From NCBI GenBank assembly GCA_937910235.1, contig CALENB010000101.1, positions 2,098 to 66,097 of the forward strand: DNA of 64,000 nt, in the 5' to 3' direction. The stretch is from an uncultured Myxococcales bacterium. GTDB taxonomy: Bacteria; Myxococcota_A; UBA9042. Shown here piece after piece: positions 2,670-59,446 of this stretch; the first letter of the stretch is position 1; every line of letters begins with the position of its first letter. Under the pieces are notes generated by a model. That model was not told the DNA's origin. It did not search any database and saw only the letters and a list, made by a program, of their open reading frames with translations. The translations under genes were made by a program, and so were the position numbers.

Positions 2670-4325
<1,656 letters not shown>

Positions 4326-41510: not shown

Positions 41511-42031
41511 CGTGACGCTCCTGAGGCGGGCTTAGCGCCGCGCTGCTTCGGCACCCACGCCCAGACCATCTCACACACGATCGGCTCCCGCCCGCTCTCG
41601 TCTGTGACCGTCACCGCGACGACCGTCTCGCCCTTCTCCAGCGTCCGAATCTGCTCCTGCTGCGCCACCGTCAGCGTCGCCACCGCGCGCATCGCGCCTT
41701 GGCTGCGCCGCACAAAATCGGTGTGAATCGTCTTGACGACTGGCACGCTGGTGTCCGGCGTGTTCATCCCGACCAAGATCCCGGTCGCGGTCTCGGCCAG
41801 CAACACCATCGCGCCTGCGTGCACCTGGCCGATGTGGTTACGCGCCGGGCGTCGATTCGCGAGCGATGTCTCGACGCGGCTGACGGTGCACACCTCAAAT
41901 CGAACGCCGGTGGTGCCGATGTAGGGCACAACCGTGCGAAACAGCGTGGTCAGCGCGCGACTGCGCAATCGGGCCGGCAACGGGTCGAGTCTGCCGACCA
42001 TAGCGGCGAGACGGTTGGCGTGCTGAGGCAT
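41507..42031 (-). CDS. Hotdog-fold thioesterase-like protein (DUF4442/YiiD_C-like)
   Basis: The RNHIGQVHAGAMVLLAETATGILVG core is typical of this family. Start chosen at MPQHANRLA; the ORF is open up to 42280 but that extension contains DNA tandem repeats. Confidence 0.5.
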   Translation of the reverse strand: MPQHANRLAAMVGRLDPLPARLRSRALTTLFRTVVPYIGTTGVRFEVCTVSRVETSLANRRPARNHIGQVHAGAMVLLAETATGILVGMNTPDTSVPVVKTIHTDFVRRSQGAMRAVATLTVAQQEQIRTLEKGETVVAVTVTDESGREPIVCEMVWAWVPKQRGAKPASGASR

Positions 42032-45145: not shown

Positions 45146-46231
45146 ATGACCGCACCCAGCCGATCCACGCACGCCCAGTCCAAATACACGCCGTCCACGC
45201 ACCACCATCGGCCTCTCCTGTGGGCGCTGCTCAGCCTAACGGTCGCCTGCAGCAGCGGCGCAACCGACGCGAACAGCGGCGCTCTTGCCAGGCGAAGCGG
45301 CGACACGGCGCAGGTCTGGGAGGTTGGTGACGGGAGCGGCGACACCACGGCTGGCCTAGTGGATACGGGGCTGACGGACGCGGCTCTGGCCGACTCAGCG
45401 CCCTCCAAGGCGGACGCCGACCCAGATGCGGCCGGGCGCGCGAGTGGCGGCGACGGTTCAGCGGCGACGGCGCTGTGCAGTCACGGCACCGTGATCGTGC
45501 AATGCAGCTACAAGACGGAGGTCCTCAGCATCGGTTTTCCGCTCGATTCGCAGCGCAGCGTGCATTGGCAGCTGCCCCTCGGCGAGGCCCCGACCGGCGG
45601 TTGGCCGTGGGTGCTGATCTTTCAGGGCTCGTTCTTCTCCGCCGACCAAGCCTGGACCGCGACCCCGCTGTCGGCGTTCGGAGCGTTGTATCTGGTCGAG
45701 ACGATCGAGGCGCTACTGGGGGCCGGATACGCCGTGCTGACGCCCGAGGCCGCCGCGAGCGGCACCACATTCTGGAACACCAACGTCATGCCGTGGCGCG
45801 CCGCTTGGTCCAGCTCACCCGACGCCGCCTTGATGAAGGTGCTGTTCGCAGCCGTACAGGCCGGCAAATTCGGGCCGTTGGACCCCAAGCGGCGATTTGC
45901 CGCAGGCGCCTCAAGTGGCGGGTACATGACGAGCCGCATGGCGATCGCCTACCCCGGCACGTTCCGCGCGCTGGCCATCATCGCGGCGGCCTACGCGACT
46001 TGCGCTGGTTCGCTCTGCCTAGTGCCGTCGTTACCGGCCGACCATCCGCCTACGCTGTTCATGCACGGTCAGCTCGACTTGGTGGTGCCACAATGGACCG
46101 CGGAGCTCTACAAGGGCGCTCTGGACAAGCAAGGCACGCCGACGTCCCTGATCAGTGATCCGCTTGGGGGGCACAGCTGGCCGGCGACCGGCGCCAAGGC
46201 GATCCTCGAATTCTTCGGCGAGCATCCGTAG
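45146..46231 (+). CDS. Secreted alpha/beta-hydrolase esterase, LpqC/PHB-depolymerase-like
   Basis: Lipobox (LSLTVACSSG) and a nucleophile elbow GASSGGYM in a secreted esterase layout. The ORF is open from 44765 but the signal peptide starts at 45146. Confidence 0.55.
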   Translation: MTAPSRSTHAQSKYTPSTHHHRPLLWALLSLTVACSSGATDANSGALARRSGDTAQVWEVGDGSGDTTAGLVDTGLTDAALADSAPSKADADPDAAGRASGGDGSAATALCSHGTVIVQCSYKTEVLSIGFPLDSQRSVHWQLPLGEAPTGGWPWVLIFQGSFFSADQAWTATPLSAFGALYLVETIEALLGAGYAVLTPEAAASGTTFWNTNVMPWRAAWSSSPDAALMKVLFAAVQAGKFGPLDPKRRFAAGASSGGYMTSRMAIAYPGTFRALAIIAAAYATCAGSLCLVPSLPADHPPTLFMHGQLDLVVPQWTAELYKGALDKQGTPTSLISDPLGGHSWPATGAKAILEFFGEHP

Positions 46232-46265
46232 CCAAGTCTGCAGACGCGCGAGCGCAGCCGCAATT

Positions 46266-46281
46266 TTGTGCAGCGCAACAA
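46266..46281. promoter_or_regulatory. Predicted PhaR operator copy A: TTGTGCAGCGCAACAA, directly upstream of a TTGACA -35 element
   Basis: Palindromic TTGTGC-N3-GCAACAA. The same motif recurs at 46376, 56621 and 57783. Confidence 0.5.
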
Positions 46282-46375
46282 TTCACAATTGACAGCAGTT
46301 GTTCGGAGAACTACCGTGTCGTCGGCGTTTGAGGACTTGTCTTCTCGCGTCGACAACCACGGTGTCGCGTCCATT

Positions 46376-46390
46376 TTGTGCAGCGCACCA
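46376..46390. promoter_or_regulatory. Predicted PhaR operator copy B: TTGTGCAGCGCACCA, between the putative promoter and the SDR start
   Basis: Half-site TTGTGC-N3-GCAC, 30-50 bp upstream of the SDR start codon. Confidence 0.45.
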
Positions 46391-46438
46391 TAGCCCTCTC
46401 AAGCTGGTTAGCGCCGCTTGGGCGGTCGGAGCAACGAC

Positions 46439-47185
46439 ATGGATTTGAAAGACCTGAAGGTCATCGTCACGGGCGCCGCTAATGGCATGGGCACACATTT
46501 TGCCAATCAGCTCGCGGCCGCAGGTGCCTCCGTCGCGGCGGGGGACATCGACGTTGCCGGACTCGAGCGGCTCGCGCCCGGGATCCACACCCGCCGCCTC
46601 GACGTGACCGACGATGCAGACCTAACGGCCTTTGTTGACTGGGCGGCGGCGCAGATGGGGGGCCTCAATGGCCTCATCAACAACGCGGGCATCATCCGCG
46701 ACGGGTTGTTGGTGCGGAGAGACCGCAAATCTGGCGAGATCACCAAACTGTCGCGGCAGTTTTGGGACGACGTGCTCGCGGTCAACCTCACCGGCGCGAC
46801 CATGATGGTGCGCGAGACGATCGCCAAGATGATCGAGATCGAGCAATTTCCCGGCGTGATCGTCACCCTGTCGTCGATCTCAAGGCACGGCAACGCGGGG
46901 CAGAGCAACTACGTCGCGGCCAAGGCGGCGCTCGCGGCCAACACGCTGACGTGGGCACGGGAGTTCTCGCGATATGGCATCCGCTTTGGCGCGATCGCGC
47001 CAGGGATGGTGGCGACGCCGATGACGGCCGGCATGAATGAGAAGGCGCTCGCGGCGCTGACGGCCCGCATCCCGGTTGGTCGCATCGGGTTGCCTGAGGA
47101 CATCTGGCAAGCGATCCGGTTCGTGCTGGAGTGCGACTATTTCAACGGTCGCACCATCGATGTAGACGGCGGCCTGTCGATGTAG
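46439..47185 (+). CDS. Short-chain dehydrogenase/reductase (FabG/PhaB-like 3-ketoacyl reductase)
   Basis: TGAANGMG Rossmann motif and a YxxxK catalytic segment (NYVAAKAA). Possible acetoacetyl-CoA reductase role given the PHA gene context. An alternative start lies at 46418. Confidence 0.7.
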   Translation: MDLKDLKVIVTGAANGMGTHFANQLAAAGASVAAGDIDVAGLERLAPGIHTRRLDVTDDADLTAFVDWAAAQMGGLNGLINNAGIIRDGLLVRRDRKSGEITKLSRQFWDDVLAVNLTGATMMVRETIAKMIEIEQFPGVIVTLSSISRHGNAGQSNYVAAKAALAANTLTWAREFSRYGIRFGAIAPGMVATPMTAGMNEKALAALTARIPVGRIGLPEDIWQAIRFVLECDYFNGRTIDVDGGLSM

Positions 47186-47201: not shown

Positions 47202-48233
47202 TCAGCGGGCGTCGCGCGCAGCCCACCAGCCCGACAGCGCCGGCCACAAGCCCTGAGAAGCTGGCCGCGACACGACCCCGCCGACGTGACTGCCGGGGAG
47301 CTTCCAGACCGCCTTGTCCGTCGACGCCACGACGCCTTCAATGCAGGCGCAATCCTGCCACGGCGCGATGGCGTCCTGCTCAAACACCACGGCGAGGAGG
47401 GGGCAGGCGATCCGACCGAGGTGCACTGGGTTGCCGGTGATGGCCAGCGTGCCCGCCATCAAGGCGTTCTGCCGATAGAGCTCGTCGAGGTACCGCTTGA
47501 AGAAGTGGCCGGGCAGCGAGACGTTGTCGCTCGACCAGGTCTCCAGGGCGAGATACCCGGCCAAGAACCGGTCATTCCAAGCCCTGTCGATCAGGTTGAC
47601 GGCCTTGGCTAGCTTGAGCGTGGGTCGCAGCATCTGAAAGCTCCCCTCGAGCAGTTGCCACGGCATCAGACCAAAAGCGGCGGTGATGGCTCCCACGTCA
47701 AAATCCGGCGAGCGCGTCCATGCGCCCAACAACCCGTCGCCGTGAAATTGCATCGGCGCGGCGAGGTTGCAGACCGAGGCGACATGGGTCGCGTCGAGCG
47801 CGGCCTGGATGACGGTGAAGATGCCACCCATGCAGTACCCCAGCAGGTGGGTTTGGCGCCGGGCGCTGCTGCGGGCGACGATGCGCACGCATCGGGGCAG
47901 ATAGACGCCGCAGAGCTCGTCAAAATCAACAAACCGATCCTCGGCCTGCGGGGTGCCCCAGTCGATGATCCAGACGTCATGGCCCGCCGCAACAAGGAAC
48001 TCGACGAAGCTCTTGCCTGGCATCAAATCCAGGATGTAGTGGCGGTTGATGAGCGAGGGCACCAGCAAAATCGGCGTGGCGAAGGCGAGTCCTTCGGGCC
48101 GCGGGCGGTAACGCAGCAGGCGCAGCTTGTTCTCGCGGTGGATCACGTCCGACGGGGTGCCGCCCACGTGGGGCTTGGGTCGCCGCTTCAAAGTGACTAG
48201 GTTTTTCAGCCGCGCAAAGCCCTTGTCGCCCAC
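47202..48233 (-). CDS. phaC: PHA synthase catalytic subunit, class III/IV-like paralog (PhaC2)
   Basis: Shares ILLVPSLINRHYILDL, AGHDVWIIDWG and the GYCMGG lipase-box (Cys nucleophile) motifs with the PhaC at 58367. Confidence 0.7.
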   Translation of the reverse strand: MGDKGFARLKNLVTLKRRPKPHVGGTPSDVIHRENKLRLLRYRPRPEGLAFATPILLVPSLINRHYILDLMPGKSFVEFLVAAGHDVWIIDWGTPQAEDRFVDFDELCGVYLPRCVRIVARSSARRQTHLLGYCMGGIFTVIQAALDATHVASVCNLAAPMQFHGDGLLGAWTRSPDFDVGAITAAFGLMPWQLLEGSFQMLRPTLKLAKAVNLIDRAWNDRFLAGYLALETWSSDNVSLPGHFFKRYLDELYRQNALMAGTLAITGNPVHLGRIACPLLAVVFEQDAIAPWQDCACIEGVVASTDKAVWKLPGSHVGGVVSRPASQGLWPALSGWWAARDAR

Positions 48234-48256
48234 AACCTGCCTCCGAGTAGCCAGCG

Positions 48257-49951
48257 TTACGCGTACATCGCCGCAAACGTCTCGGCAAACATCTGATGAA
48301 CCTGCCGGCGCCTCACCTTGAGCGTCGCCGTCAGCAGCCCAGACTCGATCGTCAGCGGGCTGTGGATCACCTCAAAGCGCTTAATGGTCTCGTGACGCGC
48401 CAGCCCGGCGTTCACGGCCGCGATGCGCCGCTCGACCTCTTCTCGCAGCAGCGCTCGGACCTGGGCTTCGGACAGGTCGACCGGCTTTGCGCCCCGAAAT
48501 GCGGCCTCTGCGAGCGGATCGAGCCAGACGCCAGCCGTCAGAAAACGCCGACCGTCGCCGAAGAGCACGAGGTGTCCGACCAGATCGTCGTCCGCAAAAC
48601 GCAGCTCCACATTCGCCGGCGGCACGTTCTTGCCGCTCGCGAGCACAAAGATGTCCTTCTTTCGGTCGATGATCTGAAGAAAACCGTCCTCGGTGAACCG
48701 CCCCACGTCGCCCGTGCACAGCCAGCCATCGTCGGTGAACGCTGCGGCCGTCGCCTCCGGGTCCTTGTGGTAACCCGCGAAGATGTTGGGTCCGCGCGCC
48801 AAGATCTCGCCATCGTCGGCGAGGCGGAGCGCCACCGACGGCAGCGGCCGCCCCACCGAATCGAAACGGAACGCGTCTGGCCGGTTGAGCGTCAGCGTCG
48901 GCGACGCCTCGGTGAGACCGTACCCTTCGATGATCAGCAGACCGTTGCGATGAAAGAACTGCTTCACCGCGACGCTCAGCCCTGCGCCACCCGAGAGCAG
49001 AAAGTGGAAGCGACCACCGGTCAGCTCGCCGAGCCGCTGCGCTTGGGCCGCCTCGTCGCCCGCCTTCATCGCAAACGACGCGAGCTTCTCGAAGACCGCC
49101 GGCACGCTCATGAAGACGGTGGGCCGCACTTCGGGCAGGTGCTTGAAGAGGTCAATCGGCTCACACAGCCAGGTCTCGAAGCCCAACGTGTTGCCCAGGC
49201 ACGCCTCGCCAAAGCCGAAGATATGGCTCATCGGCAGCCACAGCAGATCGACATCGGGGGCCTCGCCATCGGGATCAGCGAGCATCGTGGCGTTGCACTG
49301 CAACCAGTCTCGGCCGTTGCTCGCGACGTTGAGGTGGGTCAGGGGCACGCCCTTGGGTAGCCCCGAGGTGCCCGACGTGTAGAGCATCACGGCGCCGTCC
49401 TCGAGGGAGATGGCGTCGAGGAGCCGGCCGATAGCGCCTGTGTCCTCGCCGTGCAGCGCCGCGCCGATCTCAAGCGCTTCGGAGAGGTTGTGCGCCGCCA
49501 GGGCGGGGCCGGTGGCGGCGCCGTCGAAACGCACCACCTGTGGCGGCGTGGGCAGCGGCGCCAGCGCCTCGTGCAGCTTGTCGGCGAGCGGGTCCGTCGC
49601 CACAAACACAAAACTGGCGTCGCTATGACCCACCACGTGCCGCACCTGCTCAGCGGTGCAGCTCGCATACACCGGCACCATCACGCCACCCGCTGCCTGG
49701 ATAGCCAGCGCGGCCGTCATCCATTGCACGCTGTTTGGCGCCAAAATCGCCGCCCGATCACCCCGCTGCAGGCCCGCTGCGCGCAGCCAGAGGGCGAGAT
49801 GCTGAATGTCTGCGGCGAAGGCCCCCCAGGTCACGTCGCGCCAGCCATCGCCGTCGGGGACGTGAAAACGCACCCGTTCGCTGCGGGAGGGCAGCGCGTC
49901 AAAGACGATGCAAGGCGCCGGCTTGGGGGCGAGGTAGGGCGTAGGATCCAT
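48257..49951 (-). CDS. AMP-dependent acyl-CoA synthetase/ligase embedded in the PhaC2 operon
   Basis: LYTSGTSGLPKGV AMP-binding motif. Gaps of 3 nt and 23 nt to its flanking genes imply one transcript. Confidence 0.75.
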   Translation of the reverse strand: MDPTPYLAPKPAPCIVFDALPSRSERVRFHVPDGDGWRDVTWGAFAADIQHLALWLRAAGLQRGDRAAILAPNSVQWMTAALAIQAAGGVMVPVYASCTAEQVRHVVGHSDASFVFVATDPLADKLHEALAPLPTPPQVVRFDGAATGPALAAHNLSEALEIGAALHGEDTGAIGRLLDAISLEDGAVMLYTSGTSGLPKGVPLTHLNVASNGRDWLQCNATMLADPDGEAPDVDLLWLPMSHIFGFGEACLGNTLGFETWLCEPIDLFKHLPEVRPTVFMSVPAVFEKLASFAMKAGDEAAQAQRLGELTGGRFHFLLSGGAGLSVAVKQFFHRNGLLIIEGYGLTEASPTLTLNRPDAFRFDSVGRPLPSVALRLADDGEILARGPNIFAGYHKDPEATAAAFTDDGWLCTGDVGRFTEDGFLQIIDRKKDIFVLASGKNVPPANVELRFADDDLVGHLVLFGDGRRFLTAGVWLDPLAEAAFRGAKPVDLSEAQVRALLREEVERRIAAVNAGLARHETIKRFEVIHSPLTIESGLLTATLKVRRRQVHQMFAETFAAMYA

Positions 49952-49954
49952 CGC

Positions 49955-50422
49955 TCAAAGCTCCTTGCTGCGCTTCTTGGAGGCCGGTTTTGCGGCCGGT
50001 TTTGCCGTCGGTTGGGCGTCAGGCTGTGCGGTCGGCTGTGCGGTCGGCTGTGCCGCCGCTGTGACGGCTCGCACCGTCTGCAGGGCCTCGATCAGCACCG
50101 CGTCGCGCTCGGCTAAGGCGCTGACCAAGGTTCGGATCTCGTCTCGCTGCACCGCGAGCTGCTCCTCCAAGTCCATCATCCGGCTGCCGAGCTGATGCAC
50201 CTCGTGCAGCATCCGCTCCTGGTCCCGCTTCACGGCCACGCCCGCCTGCCCCCACAGGGTCGCCGATTGGTGGTCGGCCTTGGCCTTGGCCTTCGCAGCC
50301 GCGGTGAGCATGGCGCCAGCGGGGCCGAGCAACATGGGGCTCTTCATCACCTGTTCCATCCACGTCGCCGTAGCGTTCTCCCATGCGTCGAAGCCGCCTT
50401 TCCAGGTTTTCCAGGTGTCCAT
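49955..50422 (-). CDS. Small Trp-rich/coiled-coil protein, putative PHA synthase partner subunit (PhaE/PhaR-subunit-like) or phasin
   Basis: 155 aa. The N-terminal W-x2-W-x6-W segment and C-terminal coiled coil resemble the 147-aa protein upstream of phaC at 57924. It is the first gene of the PhaC2 operon. Confidence 0.4.
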   Translation of the reverse strand: MDTWKTWKGGFDAWENATATWMEQVMKSPMLLGPAGAMLTAAAKAKAKADHQSATLWGQAGVAVKRDQERMLHEVHQLGSRMMDLEEQLAVQRDEIRTLVSALAERDAVLIEALQTVRAVTAAAQPTAQPTAQPDAQPTAKPAAKPASKKRSKEL

Positions 50423-50522
50423 GTTCGCTCCTTGTGGCTAGTAGTCGTCGGTGAACGGGTGTCGTCGGTGCTGTCTTGTTGTCGGTGATGGCTTGTCGTC
50501 GCGGTGTAAAACCAAGTGCCTG

Positions 50523-50568
50523 GCGCCGCCCTCAGCCGCCAGCTCGCGCTCACAAGCTGAGGCGGCGC
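50523..50568 (-). terminator. GC-rich hairpin (13-bp stem, 19-nt loop) overlapping the 3' end of the lipoprotein gene
   Basis: GCGCCGCCCTCAGC ... GCTGAGGCGGCGC. It separates the 5-gene operon from the PhaE-like operon. Confidence 0.35.
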
Positions 50569-51473
50569 AGCTCCGAGGCGGTCTCAAAGTCAGCTTTCGT
50601 CTCATTTCTCAGGCTCGTGGCCCGCGCCACCTCCCCGAGGCACTCGAATAGAAACGACACCTGCTGCTCGGTGATCGTCGGCCCGATCGCGGGCGTGATG
50701 GTCAGCTTGGTCCGCACGCGGAGGGTCTGGGTCAATGTCAGGTCCGGTAGCTCGAGCCGGCCGGTGGCGTCGACCGAGACCTCGTACGTGTCCTCGCCGA
50801 TCCACGGCAGACCGTAGAGCTTGCCGTTCGACACCTTGCCCTTCGAGGTCCAGGAGCGCCCTTTCTCGAGCGGAAAGCGCAGCACAGCCACGGGCTGCTG
50901 GTACACGAGCAGCGACTGGCCATCAGCCGGCGACTCCTCGCGGGAGGCCGTGCCCAGCAACCACAAGCCCTGAACATCGCGGCGGTAGACGGCGTCGAAG
51001 CGGCCGCCCGCATCCAGCCCTACGGTGAAGGCGTCCGCGGCGAAGTGCGCTGCGTACCAGCGCCCAGAGACCGGCGTCGCGGTGAAGCTCGCGAGTCGAT
51101 CGGTGCTGCTGCGTTCAGACCAATCCCACACCTGCTGGCCTTTGTCGTTGACGAAGCCCTTGAGGTCGACGGGCACGTGCAGCTCCGCCGGGCTGACCCG
51201 AAACCTCGCCGGGATCCCCATGGCGGCGACGAGCTCGGAGGCGTCGATGTGCCCGTCGAGGTTCGGAATGCAGGCGGGCCCGTTCCCCACCGCGGGCACA
51301 TACGGCAACAGCGGCCCGGCTTGCCCATTCTCGGCGGCACAGGCACAGGCGATGAGGCACCCCAGGGCGACCGCGACGCGGGAGCGCGCCGCCACGCCGC
51401 GATCGAGCCGGATTTGCGGGCTGTTGGCGGGTCGCGACCGCTGCGGGTTTATCATCAGGGGCTCGTGGCGCAT
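50550..51473 (-). CDS. Lipoprotein, paralog of 53991-55043, conserved C-terminal DFETASELRRL tail
   Basis: Lipobox (ALGCLIACAC). Aligns along its length with the other lipoprotein. An alternative longer start at 51521 would overlap the upstream gene. Confidence 0.55.
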   Translation of the reverse strand: MRHEPLMINPQRSRPANSPQIRLDRGVAARSRVAVALGCLIACACAAENGQAGPLLPYVPAVGNGPACIPNLDGHIDASELVAAMGIPARFRVSPAELHVPVDLKGFVNDKGQQVWDWSERSSTDRLASFTATPVSGRWYAAHFAADAFTVGLDAGGRFDAVYRRDVQGLWLLGTASREESPADGQSLLVYQQPVAVLRFPLEKGRSWTSKGKVSNGKLYGLPWIGEDTYEVSVDATGRLELPDLTLTQTLRVRTKLTITPAIGPTITEQQVSFLFECLGEVARATSLRNETKADFETASELRRLSL

Positions 51474-51484
51474 CGATCGTTCCC

Positions 51485-53086
51485 TCAGAAAGTGTACTGC
51501 AGCGTCAGCCGCGCCAACCACGCAGACTTGGCTTGTAGCCCAGCGGCTGGATTATCCAGGCCCGACAGTGGCAGCAGCCACGCGCCCTGGAGTGCGGCGA
51601 TGAAGCCGTCACGGCTCTCGTAACGGATGGTGGGATCGATCTCGACACCCAAGGGTCGTGTGCCGCCCGGCGTCGATTGGGCCTCGACCGCCCAGGCCGC
51701 GACGGCAGCGAGGTCGAGCTGCAACGTGCCCGCGCCGAAGTCTGCGACGCGGTGATGCACGTGCGGCCGCAGGTAGATCGCGTCGGTCACGCGCCCGAGC
51801 AGCTCGCGGAACAGGATGCGATCGACGCGGTAGTCCGAGTGAAAGCGAAAGTTGTCGATCCGCGTGTCCGCCGGCGGGCTCGCCTGGGGACCGTCGAGCT
51901 CGCCCGGCTGCGGGTAGCCTGCGCCCACGGGCTGGGCCGCGCCGAACCCCGGGGCCGGGTCGCCGCTGGCGTAGCCTGCGTCCAGCCCGCCACCGAAACC
52001 CTGCTTCGGGTCGCCGAAGTCGGTCTGGAGCGCCGCGCCGATCTGCAGCGACTCGACGGGATCCCGATAGAGGGCGCCCGGCAGGAGCGTGCCCTGCTCA
52101 ACGGTGCCGGAGAGCACCGCGGCTTCGACCTCGACGCGAAACCGCGCGCCGCGCCATCGCAACCAGAGGTCACCGGCGAGCGCCGAGAAGTTGCGCGGCA
52201 CCACCGAGGCCGAGGTCAGCGCGCCCGACGCGGACTGGCTCGGGTCGACGTTCGGCAGCCAGCTCGCCGGTACATCCAGCTCCTGGGTGCGGCGCGACAG
52301 CCACAACCCAGCGTCGAGGGTGGTGCGGCCAGCCCGAGCTCGACGCGCGAACGTGGTCTCATCGGCGAAACGCAGCACGGCGAACGTGATGGTTCGCACG
52401 TCATCCCGAGGATCGAGGTCGATGGTGCGGCCGGGCGCGGTCCGCGCGACCTGCGGTCCCGTCGCCGAGAAGTCGTAGGCGAGCGCCCAGATGAGCCCGG
52501 CGATGGGGGTCACAAACGCGATGCGGTCGGCGGCGTCTCCCGTGTCGCTCTCCATGCCATCGCCGCCGTGGGTCAAGATCCCCAGCCCCCAATGGCTGCC
52601 CATGCGCCCCGCAGCCAGCACGCCGAACGGGGTGACGGTCTCGGCCCACACGCGACGAAGCCGGATCTGCGCGCTCTCAGGCGCCTGCCCCGTTGCGCCG
52701 AGCGGCGCGCCGTCAGGGCTGGCGCCGAGGCCCGTGCCGTCCATGACGTCCAGCCGCATGTGAATGGCCAGACCGCCGCGCGGCGCGAAGATCGACAAGT
52801 CCGTGCGCAGCCGCATGTCGGCGTGGGTCAGCATCGCGGCTGTGGGGTCGGACAGCGGCACGGGGAAGAACATGCGCCCAGAGGGGGTCGGTCCGCGGTC
52901 CAGATCCAGGTTGTTGAGCGCTTCGCCCCGCAGCCGCAGCGCGCCATGCACCTCGACAGCGGTCGTCGCGCGATCGTGCAGGCCTTGTCCTAGCTGCGTG
53001 AAGGTCTCTGCGGCGGTCGCAGGCGCCACGATGCCGCTCGCCAGCAAGGTTGTAGACGCCCAGAGCGCCAGCGTTGTCGCCCTCAT
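51485..53086 (-). CDS. Outer-membrane beta-barrel protein (FadL/porin-like), hypothetical
   Basis: Signal peptide (TLLASGIVAPATAAE), alternating beta-strand pattern and a C-terminal aromatic residue (LTLQYTF). Start overlaps the hydrolase stop by 4 nt. Confidence 0.5.
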   Translation of the reverse strand: MRATTLALWASTTLLASGIVAPATAAETFTQLGQGLHDRATTAVEVHGALRLRGEALNNLDLDRGPTPSGRMFFPVPLSDPTAAMLTHADMRLRTDLSIFAPRGGLAIHMRLDVMDGTGLGASPDGAPLGATGQAPESAQIRLRRVWAETVTPFGVLAAGRMGSHWGLGILTHGGDGMESDTGDAADRIAFVTPIAGLIWALAYDFSATGPQVARTAPGRTIDLDPRDDVRTITFAVLRFADETTFARRARAGRTTLDAGLWLSRRTQELDVPASWLPNVDPSQSASGALTSASVVPRNFSALAGDLWLRWRGARFRVEVEAAVLSGTVEQGTLLPGALYRDPVESLQIGAALQTDFGDPKQGFGGGLDAGYASGDPAPGFGAAQPVGAGYPQPGELDGPQASPPADTRIDNFRFHSDYRVDRILFRELLGRVTDAIYLRPHVHHRVADFGAGTLQLDLAAVAAWAVEAQSTPGGTRPLGVEIDPTIRYESRDGFIAALQGAWLLPLSGLDNPAAGLQAKSAWLARLTLQYTF

Positions 53087-53994
53087 CTCGCGCCTTCCTG
53101 CAGAAAGGACCGCAAGTCCGCCGTGGAGGCCGCCGCCGCTTCGATCATGGGGAAGTGTCCGCAGCGCGGGTAGAACTTCAGCCGCGCTTGGGGCAGGTCG
53201 GACGCGAGACGCCGGGCAAATCGCGGCATCGAGATGCGGTCATCCCGCCCCCAGAGCAGCAGCACGGGCTTCTGGATGCGGCGATAGGCGGGCTGCATCT
53301 CGGCGAAATGCTGACCCCGCACCGCCGCCAGCGCCGCCGCCCGGGTGCCTGGTCGCTTGAGGGCGAGCTGCAGCTCATCGACAAACGCCTCGGTGAGAAT
53401 GGATGGATCAAAGAAGCCCGTCGCCAGCCGCTCCTCCGCGCGTTCGGTGTAAAAGAGCCGAAAAATCGCCTCGCCGAGGCCACCCACGGCGGCCCAACGG
53501 AAGAACGCTGGGATCTGGTCGTCGTAGACCCAAGCGTCATACAGCGCCACGCGCTCGACCCGATCCGGGGCAGCGATCGCCAACGCCAGCGCCACCGAGG
53601 ACCCCCAGGAGTGGGCGACGACGGCGAAGCGCTTCACGCCCCTGGCATCGAGCAGCTTGAGCACCAAGCGCGCCTGCGCCTGGGGGCTGTAATCACCCGC
53701 TGGCCGGTCGCTCCAACCAAACCCCTTGAGATCCAATGACAGCACGCGGTGGGTGCCGCGCAAGGCCTCGTCGACCCCAACCCAGGTCTCGAGCGCCGAG
53801 GCGAAGCCGTGAAGCAGCACCACCGCCGGTCCCTGCCCGCGGTCGGTGTACCGCACACGCACGCCGTCGATGCGCTGCCAAGCCGCGTTCTTCGGCTCGC
53901 CGCGCATGGCGCCCTGATGAAAGGACAAGCAACCGCTCGCCGACAGCGTCAGCAGGCCCAGCAGCGCGACTATGGGGTACGCGTGACGCTTCAC
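53083..53994 (-). CDS. Secreted alpha/beta-fold hydrolase lipoprotein
   Basis: A GTG start gives a lipoprotein signal (VKRHAYPIVALLGLLTLSASGC). HGF oxyanion motif (VVLLHGFAS) and nucleophile elbow AHSWGS. The GTGA overlap with the upstream gene stop suggests translational coupling. Confidence 0.65.
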   Translation of the reverse strand: MKRHAYPIVALLGLLTLSASGCLSFHQGAMRGEPKNAAWQRIDGVRVRYTDRGQGPAVVLLHGFASALETWVGVDEALRGTHRVLSLDLKGFGWSDRPAGDYSPQAQARLVLKLLDARGVKRFAVVAHSWGSSVALALAIAAPDRVERVALYDAWVYDDQIPAFFRWAAVGGLGEAIFRLFYTERAEERLATGFFDPSILTEAFVDELQLALKRPGTRAAALAAVRGQHFAEMQPAYRRIQKPVLLLWGRDDRISMPRFARRLASDLPQARLKFYPRCGHFPMIEAAAASTADLRSFLQEGAR

Positions 53995-55043
53995 GGCGTG
54001 AGCCTGCGCAGCTCGGAGGCGGTCTCGAACTCGTCGCTCGTCTCGCCGTCTTTGGACCGCGCGGCGGCGACCGTGCCGAAACACTCGGTGGCGAAGAGGA
54101 ACGAACGCACGGTGGTGGTCAGCAGGCCAATCTGGCGGGTCAGCAGGGTCCGCACACGCAGCGCCGGGAAGTCGCCGAAGGGGGTCTTCACGGTGCCCGA
54201 GGCGTCCACCTCGCTGCCGTAGCTCTCGCTGTAGATCACGATCACGCCCTTGGCGAGGCCACTCACCGACGCCTTAACCTGCCATTTGGCCCCGATCTTC
54301 AGGGGAAAAGCCAGCAGCGGCACGGGTGGGTCGTACACCAAGCGCGTCGCGAACAAGCTGTTGTCCTTCGACACCACGCCGCGCAGGAGCAGGGCCTTAC
54401 CGTTGGCCTCGAACACCCCGAGCAGATCGCCTGAGGGAGCCATCGGCGCGGCATAACTGGCGCCGGGATAGTAGCTAGAAAACCAGAGGTCTTTGACAGG
54501 CAGGGTCTTGACCAGCACGTCTTGGTCGCCAGTCATCTTGCCCGAGAAGTCCCACACCCGCTGGCCCCCGGCGACGATCTCGCCCTTCAAGTCGACGGCG
54601 GTGTTCTCGGCCACCCGGAAGGTCGCGGCCAGGTTGGGGCCATAGGGCGCCTCGGAGGCTGTGATGGTGCCGTCGTGGTTCGGTTTGCACGCGCCAGCCT
54701 GGCCGCCAGTGTCACTCACACCGACATCGGCGGTTGGGAGGCTCGTGTCAGCAGCCGAGCCGGAGCCGTCGGACCCGGAGGCGACGGCGCCATCCTGCCC
54801 CGACGCGGCCCCGTCGCCGGTCTCCCAGCGGGTCGGGAAGCTGCCGTCCGCGGCGTCCGCGACCGACGCCGGCGCGCACGTGCCGTTGGATTGGCAGATG
54901 CTCGACGCACAGTCAGCGTTGACGTTACAGGACGCGATCGCCGTCTCGGCGCCGCAGGCCACGCCGACGACCACGCTCAGCGCGCACGCCGCGGTCACGC
55001 GAAGCCGCCGGAGGGCGGTCGCGCGCGGTGCGCTCATCTTCAT
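53991..55043 (-). CDS. Lipoprotein, paralog of 50550-51473, C-terminal DEFETASELRRL tail
   Basis: Signal MKMSAPRATALRRLRVTAACALSVVVGVACG with a Cys-rich N-terminal segment, then a domain that aligns with the other paralog. Confidence 0.55.
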   Translation of the reverse strand: MKMSAPRATALRRLRVTAACALSVVVGVACGAETAIASCNVNADCASSICQSNGTCAPASVADAADGSFPTRWETGDGAASGQDGAVASGSDGSGSAADTSLPTADVGVSDTGGQAGACKPNHDGTITASEAPYGPNLAATFRVAENTAVDLKGEIVAGGQRVWDFSGKMTGDQDVLVKTLPVKDLWFSSYYPGASYAAPMAPSGDLLGVFEANGKALLLRGVVSKDNSLFATRLVYDPPVPLLAFPLKIGAKWQVKASVSGLAKGVIVIYSESYGSEVDASGTVKTPFGDFPALRVRTLLTRQIGLLTTTVRSFLFATECFGTVAAARSKDGETSDEFETASELRRLTP

Positions 55044-55138
55044 CTTGTTCCAGGCCAACCTCATGTCGCCTCCCTCTCTGCCTGAGTGCGGCTCGCGAGC
55101 CGTGACGCGCCGCTCTTGCCTGGGCGCGGTGCCGATCG

Positions 55139-56437
55139 CTAGCTTGCGGAGGCAGCGTCGCTCGTCACCGGGCCGGTCACGGCGGCGCTGGCTGGATCCA
55201 TCGCTGCGGCCCCGACACGCGCGCGGCTGCCGGTCTCCATCAGCCCCATCGCCGGCACGACGATGAGCAGGTGCGCAAACGCCAACAGCCCGAGCGCCGC
55301 GCTGAAGCCGCCCGCGCCTGCGACCGCGCCCGTGGCCACTGGCAGCAGGAAGCCGCCGAGCTGGCCGACAAGCAGCAGCAGACCGAGCGCCGCGCCGGCT
55401 CGACTGACGCCAACGCCGGGGAGCTCGAGCGGCAAGGTGAGGACCAAGGGCGCAAAACAACCGCCGCCGATCGCGGCTACCGCCAACCACAGCCCCGGAG
55501 ATCCGGGCACGATCGCCATGATACCGAGGGCCGCCGCCGCGAGCATCGCGCCGCCAATGATGAAGGGACGCCGCAGGCCGACCTTGTCCGAGAGCCACGC
55601 GCCGCCCAGGTTCGCGACCCCCGCCACGCCAAGCCACGACGCCACCGCGACGCCTACTTCGGACGCGCTCATGCCCGCGTCGGTGAGCAAGCGCGGCAGC
55701 GAGCCGAGCAGCGCGAGGTAGCCACCAAAGAGCAGCAGCTGAATGCCCGCGACCCGCATCAGTTGGGCGTTCTTGGCCAACTTCAACACATCGGCGAGCC
55801 CTGCATGTCGCGAGAGCGCCGCCCGGTCGCGCACGAGCCACAGCCACAGCAGCCCGGTCAGCACCATCGCCACACCGGCGGCCACCATCGCCATCCGCCA
55901 GCCTCCCAGCATCGGCGCGAGCCAGGTCCGCGCCACCAACACCGTGATGGCGGTGCCAAAGGTGTAGCAGATGAGCGCGATGCCGTTGGCGCGACCCAAG
56001 TTCTGCAGCGGGACGTGGGAAGCCAAGATCTTCGGGATGGCGGGGGCCACAAATCCGACGTGCAAACCAAATCCCAACATGGCGATCGCCATCGTCCACG
56101 GCCCGGTAGCGAGGGCGCGGGAGGCGCAGGCCAACGCCCCTACCATGATCGCGAGCCCGGCGACCCAGCGCGCACCCCAGCGGTCCACGGCCGCGCCGCC
56201 CATGGGCGCCGCCACGGCGATCCCAAACGGCGCCGCGCCCCAAACCACCCCACCCATCGCATGCGAGATCGACAGATCGGCGGCGATGTCGGGCATCAGT
56301 GGCGGCAACAGCGACCACCCCAAACCACCGCCAACACCCTGCATGGCGCCAGCGAGCGCAGTGACCAGCACCGGCCGCGCAGGAGCGCCCTGGAGCACGT
56401 CCTGTATCCCGCTCTCGATCTTCGCTTGCACCGTCAT
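55139..56437 (-). CDS. MFS transporter
   Basis: 12-TM layout with Gly-rich helices. Start chosen at MTVQAKIES; the ORF is open to 56536. It is the first gene of the 5-gene operon and is divergent from phaR. Confidence 0.65.
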   Translation of the reverse strand: MTVQAKIESGIQDVLQGAPARPVLVTALAGAMQGVGGGLGWSLLPPLMPDIAADLSISHAMGGVVWGAAPFGIAVAAPMGGAAVDRWGARWVAGLAIMVGALACASRALATGPWTMAIAMLGFGLHVGFVAPAIPKILASHVPLQNLGRANGIALICYTFGTAITVLVARTWLAPMLGGWRMAMVAAGVAMVLTGLLWLWLVRDRAALSRHAGLADVLKLAKNAQLMRVAGIQLLLFGGYLALLGSLPRLLTDAGMSASEVGVAVASWLGVAGVANLGGAWLSDKVGLRRPFIIGGAMLAAAALGIMAIVPGSPGLWLAVAAIGGGCFAPLVLTLPLELPGVGVSRAGAALGLLLLVGQLGGFLLPVATGAVAGAGGFSAALGLLAFAHLLIVVPAMGLMETGSRARVGAAAMDPASAAVTGPVTSDAASAS

Positions 56438-56620
56438 CGTCGCTCTCCTCGCTGGCCTCGCCGCGCCCTGAACTGCCTCGCCGCGCCCCGAGCGGCCGCG
56501 AGAGGCTACGGTCACCCGGCTGTGTGGGCGCGCCACCGCGTCGCGGATGCGCCACAGCGGCCGGGCGAGTGGGAAGCGAGCAAAAGCTAGGGGCTCGCGG
56601 GGCTCGCGTCAAGCGCTATT

Positions 56621-56635
56621 TTGTGCGCTGCACAA
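56621..56635. promoter_or_regulatory. Predicted PhaR operator copy C: perfect palindrome TTGTGCGCTGCACAA upstream of phaR, divergent from the MFS operon
   Basis: Perfect inverted repeat. A second palindrome GTGCTGCATTCAGCAC lies at 56646-56661. Confidence 0.5.
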
Positions 56636-56939
56636 TACCGCTTTGCGTGCTGCATTCAGCACCAAGTCATCAGGCTGGTCGCGAGCTAAAGGTTCGTGTA
56701 GGCTGGCTTTCGCGGCGTAAATGGTGCGTAGTTTGCGGTGTTCTCCAGACAGAATTCACGCCCAGTCAGACACGACCCGAGACGGAAAACGGCATTGGAT
56801 GCTGCAGACGCGGTGCTGCGACGCTGCGGCGCAACAGTCCGGCGCTCCACCGGCAGAGACCCCCGCTTCAAGATCCACAACGACGACGACACGACGAGAC
56901 ACACCGCACCAACCCGCTGCAGCCAACCAGGGAACCGAC

Positions 56940-57764
56940 ATGATCACCATCAAGAAGTACAGCAATCGTCGTCTCTACGACACCGACCGCAGCAGCTACA
57001 TCACCTTGGAGGACCTCGCCGAGCGCATCTGCAAAGGCGATGACGTGCGGGTGGTCGACGCGTCCACCGGCCGCGACCTGACTCAGGCGACGCTGGTGCA
57101 GATCGTGCTTGAGAGCCGGGGCGCTGCGCGCTTTCTCCCCGCGCCGCTGCTGGTCGCCATGATCCGCATGGGGGATGACGCCCTGGCCGAGTTCCTCGGT
57201 CGCTACATGAGCTGGGCGCTGCAGGTGTACTCGGGTGTGCGGAGTCAGGCGCGCACCATGATAGGCGCTTTTGGGCCGGGTTCATTCATGAACGGCGGCC
57301 CCTTCACGGGCTTCATGGGGGGCACACCATGGCAGGGAGGCGCCGGCGGCCACGGTGGGGCGGGATGGGGTCAAGGTCCGCAGGGCTGGAGCCCACACGG
57401 CGCGGGTGCACAGGGCGGGCAGGGTTGGGCCGCGCAAGGTCAGCCGATGCCTTGGGGGGCGCCCGGTTGGCCCCTTCCGCCACAGCCCGAGCCGCCGCGG
57501 TCTGAGGCCTCGTGGTCGCCGCCGTCGGCGTCCGATGTCCCGCCGCCGGAACCCGTGTCGGCGGCCCAGGCAGCCTCATCCACGCCAGGGTCATCCACGG
57601 CAGGGTCATCCACGGCAGGGTCATCCACGCCAGGGTCATCCACGCCGGCGTCATCCCCTGAAGCCACCGCTCCCGACCCGGCCCGCTCCGAGCTTGCTGC
57701 GCTGCGGCGAGAGTTGGATGAGCTTCGGGATTCATTGAAGGCAGGTGCTCGTTCAAAGAAGTAA
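56940..57764 (+). CDS. phaR: PHA synthesis repressor PhaR (PHB_acc_N DNA-binding domain) with Ser/Thr/Gly-rich C-terminal repeat tail
   Basis: N-terminal MITIKKYSNRRLYDTDRSSYITLEDL signature. The ORF is open from 56721 but the conserved domain starts at 56940. Confidence 0.85.
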   Translation: MITIKKYSNRRLYDTDRSSYITLEDLAERICKGDDVRVVDASTGRDLTQATLVQIVLESRGAARFLPAPLLVAMIRMGDDALAEFLGRYMSWALQVYSGVRSQARTMIGAFGPGSFMNGGPFTGFMGGTPWQGGAGGHGGAGWGQGPQGWSPHGAGAQGGQGWAAQGQPMPWGAPGWPLPPQPEPPRSEASWSPPSASDVPPPEPVSAAQAASSTPGSSTAGSSTAGSSTPGSSTPASSPEATAPDPARSELAALRRELDELRDSLKAGARSKK

Positions 57765-57782
57765 AATTCGTGCCGGCCAAAT

Positions 57783-57798
57783 TTGTGCGGTGCAACAA
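57783..57798. promoter_or_regulatory. Predicted PhaR operator copy D: TTGTGCGGTGCAACAA, immediately upstream of a TTGACG-N17-TAGGTT promoter
   Basis: Same motif and the same operator-then-(-35) arrangement as copy A. It is upstream of the phaE-like/phaC operon. Confidence 0.5.
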
Positions 57799-57923
57799 AA
57801 AACCGCTTGACGCGTGCTGCTCCCGCTCTTAGGTTGCGTGAGCCGACGCCGCAATGGAGCGGCGACCGCAGCCAGCCCAGCATACCAACGACAAGCGCTA
57901 GGGCGGAGAGAGGGACACGACAC

Positions 57924-58367
57924 ATGGCCAACAAGACCGAGACCGGCGCGACGGACACCGCAAACAACACCACGTCGACGAGCGACGCTCCGCAACCGCA
58001 GCAGACCGCCCCCACCTGGCCGGATTGGCGCGCCTTCACTTGGCCGCAGCAGGGCGAGGCGCCGCAGATGTTTCAGATGCCGCAGATGTTCCAGATGCCG
58101 CAGATGCCCGAGATGCCGGGCCACGAGCTGTGGAGCAAGGCGGTTGCTGACAACGTCGCACGCATGGAAGGCCTCGTCGGCGCGCTGCAAGCGCAGTCGC
58201 AGCGCCAGTCGGAGCAGGCTGAGAAGGCCATCGACGAGCTGGCGCGGCTCACCAAGGCCAGTCTCGGTTACGGCCTGGAGCTGCAGGCCCGTGCGCACGG
58301 CATGTTCATGGACAACGCGCGCAAGGCGTCGGCGGCGGCCGCCACCAGCAAGGGCGTGGTGGCCTGA
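57924..58367 (+). CDS. Small PHA synthase partner subunit (PhaE/PhaR-subunit-like) with MFQMPQ repeat and coiled coil
   Basis: 147 aa with a W-rich N-terminus (TWPDWRAFTWP). It is translationally coupled to phaC (TGATG overlap). Confidence 0.45.
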   Translation: MANKTETGATDTANNTTSTSDAPQPQQTAPTWPDWRAFTWPQQGEAPQMFQMPQMFQMPQMPEMPGHELWSKAVADNVARMEGLVGALQAQSQRQSEQAEKAIDELARLTKASLGYGLELQARAHGMFMDNARKASAAAATSKGVVA

Positions 58368-59446
58368 TGTTCGGGCTGAATCTGCGTGAGGGGGCTGCGC
58401 CCTACGACGTCACCATGCGCGACGGCAACAGTCGCCTGCTCCGTTTTCGGACCACGGCCACTGGCGCGGGGCGACCGATTCTGCTTGTGCCGTCGATGAT
58501 CAATCGTTGGTACGTGCTCGATCTCGGCCCCGGCGCCAGCCTCGTCGCCGCGCTGGTGGAGGCGGGCCATGACGTCTGGTGTCTCGACTGGGGTGTGCCT
58601 GGAGACGAAGATCGACATCTGGACTGGGAGGCGGTGACCGCGCGGCTGCAGCGGACGGTGCGCTTTGTGCGGCGGCGTACCGGCGGCGACCCGGTGGGTC
58701 TACTGGGCTACTGCATGGGTGGGACGCTAGCCGCGATTCACACAGCGCTGCATCCGGAGGACGTGGCAGGGCTCGTCAATCTCGCCGGCCCGATCGATTT
58801 TGCCAAGGCCGGCGTGCTGGCGCACTTCGTCGATCCGCAGTGGTTTGATGCCGAAGCCATCGTGCAGGCCGGCAACCTAAGCCCAAAGCAAATGCAGGAC
58901 GGGTTCACCGCGATCTCACCGAGCAAGCAGATCGCCAAGTGGATCATGCTGGCCGACCGCGTGATCAGCGCGACGGATGCCGACGCACGCACAAAGGGCA
59001 TCGGGAGCTTCGCCCGCCTTAACGGGTGGGCGTCGGACAACATCCCGTTCCCGGCCGCCGCGTACACGACGTGGATTCGCGACCTCTACCAGCGCAACGA
59101 CCTAGCGCAGCGGCGCCACCACGTGGGCGGACGGCGGGTGGAGCTTGGCCAGATTGGCTGCCCAGTGCTCGTCATCAGCGCCGCCAACGACGCCATCTGT
59201 CCACCCGAGTCGGCCACGGCGTTGCTTGATCAGGTCGCGTCCACCGACAAGCGTCACGTCCAAGTGCCCGGTGGCCATGTCGGGGCTGTGGTTGGTCGAC
59301 GGGCGGCCAAGCTGCTGTACCCCGCCATCTCGGCGTTCTTCGAAGAGGCGGCACCGTCACGTGCCCCTAGCGCTTATTCGGGGTCACACGACGCACCCGA
59401 CCCTGTCGGCGTGCCATGGTCTGCCGCACACCGCCCGAGCTGTTGA
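58367..59446 (+). CDS. phaC: PHA synthase catalytic subunit, class III/IV type
   Basis: Collinear with class III PhaC (ILLVPSMINRWYVLDL, GHDVWCLDWG, GYCMGG lipase box, ASDNIPFP...IRDLYQRN, active-site His region GGHVG). Confidence 0.8.
   Translation: MFGLNLREGAAPYDVTMRDGNSRLLRFRTTATGAGRPILLVPSMINRWYVLDLGPGASLVAALVEAGHDVWCLDWGVPGDEDRHLDWEAVTARLQRTVRFVRRRTGGDPVGLLGYCMGGTLAAIHTALHPEDVAGLVNLAGPIDFAKAGVLAHFVDPQWFDAEAIVQAGNLSPKQMQDGFTAISPSKQIAKWIMLADRVISATDADARTKGIGSFARLNGWASDNIPFPAAAYTTWIRDLYQRNDLAQRRHHVGGRRVELGQIGCPVLVISAANDAICPPESATALLDQVASTDKRHVQVPGGHVGAVVGRRAAKLLYPAISAFFEEAAPSRAPSAYSGSHDAPDPVGVPWSAAHRPSC

Follow-up and report, generated by a model that had tools for sequence, protein, structure and literature searches.

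A predicted PhaR-controlled promoter with two operators upstream of a FabG-like reductase gene in an uncultured myxobacterium

In an uncultured aquatic myxobacterium, the gap between a depolymerase gene and an SDR gene holds two copies of a short sequence together with a pair of promoter-like hexamers, which raises the question of whether this region is a regulated promoter and, if so, to which regulator it answers. We examined this in the window, by which we mean the whole 64,000-nucleotide stretch of DNA analysed here, and in homologous loci of relatives. The SDR gene lies in a polyester (PHA) cluster that also holds two acyl-CoA ligases besides the genes listed in Table 1. The nearest species representatives are Polyangiaceae, Nannocystineae and Labilithrix MAGs, with PhaC identities of 51-59%, and contigs of the same strain are present in aquatic metagenomes. 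On sequence grounds, the 208-bp region upstream of the SDR gene is probably a sigma-70-type promoter under PhaR control, with a transcription start predicted near position 46324.

Table 1 Features of the SDR promoter, of the PHA cluster and of the related promoter on contig L024 (positions are those of the window unless L024 is named).
Feature	Position	Strand	Description
Depolymerase gene	stop at 46231		directly 5' of the gap; NF050057 (extracellular medium-chain-length PHA depolymerase), 291 bits, cut-off 270
Gap	46232-46438		208 bp, between depolymerase stop (46231) and SDR ATG (46439)
PhaR box A (predicted)	46265-46281	.	17-mer TTTGTGCAGCGCAACAA; 7 nt from box end to -35
-35 hexamer TTGACA	46289-46294	+	sequence reading and composite regex
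-10 hexamer TACCGT (TAnnnT type)	46312-46317	+	17 bp after -35; sequence reading and composite regex
PhaR box B (predicted)	46375-46391	.	17-mer TTTGTGCAGCGCACCAT; in predicted 5'UTR, 47 nt from box end to ATG
Ribosome-binding site GGAG	46428-46431	+	7 nt 5' of ATG; sequence reading
SDR gene	46439-47185	+	FabG-like 3-ketoacyl reductase, 248 aa; Pfam adh_short_C2, 160 bits; predicted regulated gene
phaC1	47202-48233	-	class-III-like synthase; convergent with SDR gene
Minus-strand promoter at box C	TTGACG 56612-56607, N17, TAGCTT 56589-56584	-	abuts box C
PhaR box C (predicted)	56620-56636	.	5' of phaR; holds perfect palindrome TTGTGCgctGCACAA at 56621-56635
phaR	56940-57764	+	predicted trans-acting regulator, 274 aa; PF07879 PHB_acc_N, 87.7 bits, cut-off 25
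PhaR box D (predicted) and promoter	57782-57835	+	box 57782-98, TTGACG 57807-12, N17, TAGGTT 57830-35
Phasin-like gene	57924-58367	+	small conserved protein; promoter at box D
phaC2	58367-59446	+	class-III-like synthase; in operon with phasin-like gene, box D promoter
L024 upstream box	L024 2980-96		position equivalent to box A
L024 -35 TTGACG	L024 3005-10		followed by N17
L024 extra (third) box	L024 3012-28		fills -35/-10 spacer
L024 -10 TATCGT	L024 3028-33		same distance from -35 as in the window
L024 downstream box	L024 3089-3105		position equivalent to box B

A sequence-only reading of the window had described an operator A at 46266-46281, a TTGACA hexamer 8 bp behind it at 46290-46295, a 17-bp spacer with a weak -10 TACCGT, and an operator B at 46376-46390 between this promoter and the start codon. 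Both operators are present at these positions (the box A 16-mer TTGTGCAGCGCAACAA and the box B 15-mer TTGTGCAGCGCACCA), and ATTTTGTGCAGCGCA forms an exact 15-bp direct repeat, at 46263-77 and 46373-87, with an offset of 110 bp. The spacer and -10 also read as described, as does the hexamer itself, its position being 46289-46294 and its distance from the operator 7 nt. TTGACA agrees with the sigma-70 -35 consensus at 6/6 positions and, with its 17-bp spacer, would suit a promoter that needs no activator. Because TACCGT shares just 3/6 positions with TATAAT, the promoter is absent from the output of a generic sigma-70 scan, and its identification therefore leans on the consensus -35, the spacing and conservation; a -10 of the TAnnnT type stands at the same distance in 11 homologous promoters. 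If transcription is assumed to start about 7 nt past the -10, box A would span approximately -59 to -43, centred near -51 and abutting the -35, and the centre of box B would therefore fall near +60, while within the window the -35/-10 spacer and start site of the SDR promoter are free of boxes.

Other candidate elements in the gap were considered and set aside. An RNA element was ruled out, as an Rfam search of 46100-46600 returned zero matches at E<=1 and the predicted 5'UTR folds no better than shuffled sequences (z = -1.0). A terminator-like hairpin at 46351-67 is weak, with 5 pairs only, and is not kept in L024. For a second promoter 3' of box B there is no -35/-10 at the expected distance, and the composite scan described below gives box A only. 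A promoter-like match on the minus strand (TTGAGA at 46402, CAAAAT at 46373), which reuses the AT arm of box B and aims into the 3' end of the depolymerase gene, was taken as chance. Six metagenome contigs with an identical SDR (99.7-99.99% identity to the window) carry the promoter region without any change and are uninformative.

By their match to three independently published PhaR consensus sequences, the repeats are canonical predicted PhaR boxes, agreeing with the TGC-RNY-GCA core and the conserved arms of the experimentally derived consensus. Boxes A and D fit the pattern of C. necator, YTKNTGCRNYGCANMAR, at 17/17 positions, and boxes B and C at 16/17. The 12-mer TGCGCTGCACAA, found on the minus strand of boxes A and B and on the plus strand of box C, is identical to the footprinted phaP4 site of B. 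diazoefficiens, and box B agrees with the consensus of that species at 12/12 positions. The S. meliloti site ACATTGTGCGGCGCACAAAGT has nearly the same sequence as the boxes of the window, the common core being TTGTGC-N3-GCACAA.

The boxes also occur far more often in the window than expected, and they lie in the promoters of phaR and the phasin-like gene. TTGTGC-N3-GCA has 6 matches at 5 places against 0.77 expected, and the C. necator pattern with <=1 mismatch has 6 matches against 0.74 expected; in neither case did any of 100 shuffles reach 6. The exact 12-mer is present in three copies in the 64 kb, each in a promoter of the pha cluster, and the 15-mer is not dispersed. A composite of box, N8-12, TTGAnn, N16-18 and TAnnnT was found three times against 0.005 expected (0/200 shuffles reached 3), at box A, at box D and, through the minus-strand reading of the palindrome, at box C. 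The arrangement that the sequence-only reading had seen at 57783, with the motif followed by TTGACG, N17 and TAGGTT, is thus confirmed; the box D core TTGTGCGGTGCA occupies 57783-94. Two further box-like matches, one at 28760 at the 5' end of an S13 carboxypeptidase gene and one at 41700 within a DUF4442 thioesterase gene, may be due to chance.

A PhaR with a PHB_acc_N DNA-binding domain is encoded in the same genome, its gene lying 10.5 kb from the SDR promoter with boxes C and D on either side. Its N-terminus is MITIKKYSNRRLYDT, and its C-terminal half is unusual and of low complexity; the product scores 88.1 bits against the equivalog model TIGR01848, under the cut-off of 109.45, and a profile search detected no PF05233 domain in it. 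The minus-strand promoter at box C aims into a seven-gene cluster whose last gene is phaC1. The product of 57924-58367 matched no family and is therefore called phasin-like by position only.

To place this promoter in a comparative context, we considered its homologues in relatives. The composite of box, -35, N16-17 and -10 precedes phasin-like/phaC2 homologues in 9/9 loci that include the promoter of this operon (L001, L002, L010, L011, L018, L025, L026, L028 and L029), with gaps of 9-12 nt between box and -35 and with TAGGTT as a recurrent -10. Most of the phasin-like promoters of relatives have one box, and all relatives with a phaR gene have boxes next to it or next to the phasin-like gene. 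In eight of the loci (L001, L002, L011, L018, L025, L026, L028 and L029) an orthologue of the SDR, with 51-73% identity, lies directly 3' of phaC2 and is therefore taken to be part of the PhaR-controlled operon there. Boxes within coding sequences of relatives (L003 at 6675, L005 at 3452 and a phaC1-internal ATGCTGCrGTGCACCAA) were attributed to conserved protein motifs, and weak sites at +122 to +132 in L001, L002 and L018 were not counted as operators, since the phasin-like protein has a conserved TSQxQQ peptide encoded at that place.

The closest relative of the SDR, P0002 on contig L024 (82% identity), stands alone, as does the SDR of the window organism; there are no pha genes within 14 kb of it. 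Box A, -35, -10, box B and the ribosome-binding site are all kept between the two promoters, with spacings that agree within 1-4 bp: 20 bp in the window and 21 bp in L024 from box A core to -35, 23 bp in both from -35 to -10, 110 and 109 bp from box A core to box B core, and 60 and 56 bp from box B core to ATG. Box B is identical at 15/17 positions, the -35 and the -10 at 5/6 each, and GGAGC is kept in the alignment, whereas the segments between these elements show 38-67% identity even with gapped alignment. The identity of box B between diverged flanks, together with the same geometry, amounts to a phylogenetic footprint for both boxes. Two boxes also precede another stand-alone SDR (L030, 71% identity); 12 nt separate one of them from a TTGACA that follows it, and the 5'UTR of this gene has a possible third palindrome. 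The regions upstream of other SDR homologues with 65-72% identity (L019-L022 and L032) are without boxes, and membership of the regulon is therefore lineage-specific.

The SDR had been called PhaB-like in the sequence-only reading, a description that we do not uphold. The product scores 137.2 bits against the PhaB model TIGR01829 (cut-off 302.1) and 133.8 bits against the PhaB model NF042966 (cut-off 436), its best NCBIfam model being PRK08217, which describes a 3-ketoacyl-ACP reductase subfamily and to which it scores 265.6 bits (cut-off 298). By profile matches it is FabG-like, its homologues are likewise of 248 aa, and its link to PHA rests on synteny and on the boxes. This linkage to PHA synthase genes is seen in the window, where the gene is convergent with phaC1, and in relatives, where its orthologues lie directly 3' of the phaC2 homologue. 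Despite a sequence unlike PhaB, the SDR is probably a monomer-supplying reductase.

A promoter design of the PhaR/phasin type, which the sequence-only reading had also proposed, is supported by five lines of evidence: the phaR gene in the window, the three consensus fits, the conserved phasin-like/phaC architecture, the boxes of L024, and the position of the SDR within the phasin-phaC operon in eight relatives. We consider it likely that the SDR gene is kept repressed by PhaR for as long as the regulator is not titrated away by polyester granules. The sequence itself shows the identity of the motif, its enrichment, its conserved geometry and the regulon context; that PhaR binds, where transcription starts, in which direction PhaR regulates and what box B does are inferences. 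A PhaR dimer on the palindromic box A, adjoining the -35, would hinder the contacts of RNA polymerase sigma region 4 and alpha-CTD. Granule formation would then titrate PhaR and derepress the SDR gene, and along with it, through box D, the phasin-like/phaC2 operon and, through box C, the minus-strand cluster whose last gene is phaC1. The earlier suggestion that a repressor bound at both sites would block the polymerase can thus be retained for box A, as a prediction whose repressive sign is itself inferred, but not for box B: centred near +60, the latter cannot block polymerase access and can therefore have only an auxiliary, looping or roadblock role. A second PhaR dimer bound there may raise occupancy through cooperativity or looping, or may act as a roadblock.

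Some observations sit less easily with this model. The -10 is weak (3/6), the core promoter is unboxed, and a box near -51 could serve an activator. The strongest repressing PhaR sites of other species lie over the -35/-10 spacer or the start site, which is where the extra box of L024 sits. Further points are the score of PhaR under the TIGR01848 cut-off, its low-complexity C-terminal half, and the several boxless SDR homologues (65-72%).

In a bolder reading, the FabG-like reductase gene of this lineage would have left the phasin-phaC operon and kept PhaR control through a promoter of its own, which PhaR dimers bound at -51 and +60, on two operators fixed 109-110 bp apart, would close into a lac-like repression loop. 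The locus would then be a positive-feedback circuit, with monomer supply turned on by the earliest polyester, and the first PhaR circuit described in Myxococcota, built on a non-canonical PhaR with a low-complexity C-terminal half. We regard this reading as doubtful. A fixed helical phasing of boxes A and B was rejected: 110 bp corresponds to 10.5 turns at 10.5 bp/turn, and the spacing between the boxes is 110 bp in the window, 109 bp in L024, ~90 bp in L030 and 72 bp in L011, with no consistent phase.

These varying distances, and the lack of a consistent helical phasing, also favour the opposite reading of box B, namely that box A alone is functional, box B being a degenerating duplicate that takes no part in regulation. 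Such a reading would fit with the distance of box B (~+60) from the promoter, too great for occlusion, and with the single box in most phasin-like promoters of relatives. We nevertheless hold it to be unlikely, given that box B is the best-conserved non-coding segment in the comparison with L024 (15/17), at similar distances to box A and to the ATG, that L011 and possibly L030 also have a downstream box, and that a downstream, intragenic auxiliary PhaR site has been proposed for C. necator phaP1 (PMC12849132).

The geometry of box and -35 bears on a further alternative, in which PhaR would act from box A (centre near -51) as an activator that recruits RNA polymerase via its alpha subunit, such that the reductase would be made while PhaR is free and DNA-bound, ahead of granule build-up. 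The SDR promoter shares this geometry with the phasin-like promoter D and its homologues, and wherever phasin promoters have been studied, they are repressed. Judging from gene order, the SDR is moreover co-transcribed with the phasin-like gene in relatives, and the extra box of L024 fills the -35/-10 spacer, a purely repressive position. The phasin-like geometry, the operon shared with the phasin-like gene and the spacer box of L024 make activation less likely, and a consensus -35 would be unusual for an activator-dependent promoter. There are nonetheless precedents: in B. diazoefficiens the phbB2 promoter is bound by PhaR, and a phaR mutation lowers phbB2 expression two-fold (PMC6201568), PhaB is lost in an R. 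etli aniA mutant (PMC6201568), and C. necator PhaR activates phaP3 from upstream sites (PMC12849132); the core promoter in the window is also not overlapped by any box. Weighing these together, we judge activation to be quite unlikely.

That the boxes are operators of another transcription factor, or a chance or mobile repeat, unrelated to PhaR, is very improbable: two box-like matches within coding regions (28760 and 41700) and ~0.7 chance matches expected would be compatible with it, but it is opposed by the exact or near match to three published PhaR consensus sequences, the adjoining of boxes to phaR or the phasin-like gene in every phaR-carrying relative, the confinement of the three exact 12-mers in the 64 kb to pha promoters with a 15-mer that is not dispersed, and the null Rfam result with an ordinary 5'UTR fold (z = -1.0).

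Repression by PhaR, relieved by granules, thus remains our preferred reading of this promoter. The PhaR recognition sequence of alpha- and betaproteobacteria recurs in Myxococcota with hardly a base changed. For an uncultured aquatic myxobacterium, the analysis outlines a testable regulon made up of a FabG-like reductase, the operon of the phasin-like gene and phaC2, and a cluster of seven genes with phaC1 as the last; at the reductase gene, which has been relocated, the two-operator design is conserved. A literature search on PhaR and storage-polyester regulation in myxobacteria found nothing relevant. The element is well supported but conventional, a regulatory site of a well-known kind, and the current view of PhaR action is unchanged. 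The added value is modest and consists in the extension of the canonical PhaR box to Myxococcota, the two-operator design, and a FabG-like candidate for monomer supply.

Several known PhaR systems can be set beside this locus. The PhaR site of Rhodobacter sphaeroides FJ1, as cited in PMC12542648, is CTGC-N3-GCAG; as given there, it has the TGC-N3-GCA core in common with the window, with C/G flanks in place of the G/A flanks (GTGC...GCAA or GCAC) found here. In S. meliloti, PhaR (AniA) recognizes the palindromic core YGC-RNY-GCR with AT-rich arms, phaP1 and phaP2 each have two palindromes that flank the -35, and PhaR seemingly has no direct control of PHB biosynthetic enzymes (PMC12542648). The SDR promoter has the palindromic core, the AT-rich arms and the presence of two copies in common with this system, but in S. 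meliloti the copies flank the -35.

In B. diazoefficiens, the PhaR sites of phaP1 and phaP4 have been mapped by DNase I footprinting, giving the consensus TGCRNYGCASMA, and phaP1, which is repressed, has two sites, located 6 bp upstream and 6 bp downstream of the -35 (PMC6201568). The recognition sequence is the same, with TGCGCTGCACAA identical in boxes A, B (minus strand) and C of the window, and the distance from this 12-mer to the -35 is 8 nt in the window compared to 6 bp at phaP1; the PhaR-repressed, granule-responsive regulon of B. diazoefficiens also resembles the model proposed here. The second site differs, lying 6 bp downstream of the -35 at phaP1 and near +60 in the window, as does the target, a phasin in this alphaproteobacterium and a reductase in the myxobacterium. 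Unlike the repression proposed for the window, the B. diazoefficiens reductase gene phbB2 appears to be activated by PhaR.

In C. necator (Ralstonia eutropha), phaP1 is repressed and has a site BS1 that immediately precedes the -35, a site BS2 at the transcription start and a predicted BS3 in the ORF; a lac-like model proposed for this promoter invokes auxiliary operators and looping (PMC12849132). The window promoter has another target gene, and neither its start site nor its -10 is covered by a PhaR site. The two promoters nevertheless have in common the palindromic YTKNTGCRNYGCANMAR, one site that immediately precedes the -35, and another at a distance downstream.

Downstream of box C, the candidate PhaR operator at 56620-56636, about 300 nt (56637-56939) separate the box from the phaR ATG, and no convincing plus-strand promoter was found in this interval, which holds a further, more degenerate box (see the table). 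On the other side of box C, the minus strand holds two long overlapping ORFs, 53991..56612 and 55139..56536, that are read in different frames; the earliest ATG preceded by a ribosome-binding site, at 56437, belongs to the frame of the latter, and for the 873-aa ORF on this strand homologues were recovered for the C-terminal half only. The genes behind box C form a conserved seven-gene cluster that the window has in common with Polyangia and 'Bradymonadales' MAGs (L001, L003 and L009-L011), and no recognisable PhaE is present.

PhaR itself (56940-57764) has the N-terminal DNA-binding domain as its sole recognisable domain. It scores below the cut-off of the PhaR equivalog model TIGR01848, and PF05233 was not found in it. 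The residues G, Q, P and S abound in its C-terminal ~170 aa, where 5.4 copies of a 15-bp unit, in the 3' part of the gene (57576-57656), encode SSTAG/SSTPG. The gene at 57924-58367, which lies between phaR and phaC2, encodes a small protein and has a stop codon overlapped by the start of phaC2, likewise carries a repeat (9/18 bp, 58061-58118), which encodes PQMFQM. Since its product matched no Pfam or NCBIfam family, the label 'phasin' reflects position only; the protein is kept in both L001 and L011, and could alternatively be a partner subunit of the synthase.

Two other lineages, L024 and L030, also have PhaR-type boxes at an SDR gene that stands alone, with three boxes per gene. Within the window, box-like 17-mers with one mismatch fall at two coding regions, and the chance expectation for such matches is ~0.7.

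Box-like sites and associated features in the window and in relatives
Feature	Position	Context
Box with two mismatches	56821-56837	between box C and phaR ATG
Seven-gene cluster	47202-56600	large hypothetical, alpha/beta hydrolase, two hypotheticals, 155-aa protein, acyl-CoA ligase, class-III-like phaC
L024 box	3012-3028	occupies whole -35/-10 spacer
L030 boxes	3738 and 3824 (region 3738-3930)	stand-alone SDR gene
L030 perfect palindrome ATGTTGCttgGCAACAT	within 3738-3930	5'UTR of stand-alone SDR gene
Box-like 17-mer, one mismatch	41700-41716	within DUF4442 coding region
Box-like 17-mer, one mismatch	28760-28776	5' end of S13 D-Ala-D-Ala carboxypeptidase gene
Perfect 8-1-8 palindrome TTGACGCAtTGCGTCAA	42176-42192	upstream of acyl-CoA ligase gene

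The acyl-CoA ligase gene (GTG 42298) begins 106 nt downstream of the palindrome TTGACGCAtTGCGTCAA, and the DUF4442 thioesterase gene is divergent. This palindrome fits just 15 of the 17 positions of the C. necator PhaR pattern, but its core, CGC-N3-GCG, agrees with the YGCRNYGCR core of S. meliloti PhaR. It could be either a PhaR box of variant sequence or an operator for another regulator.
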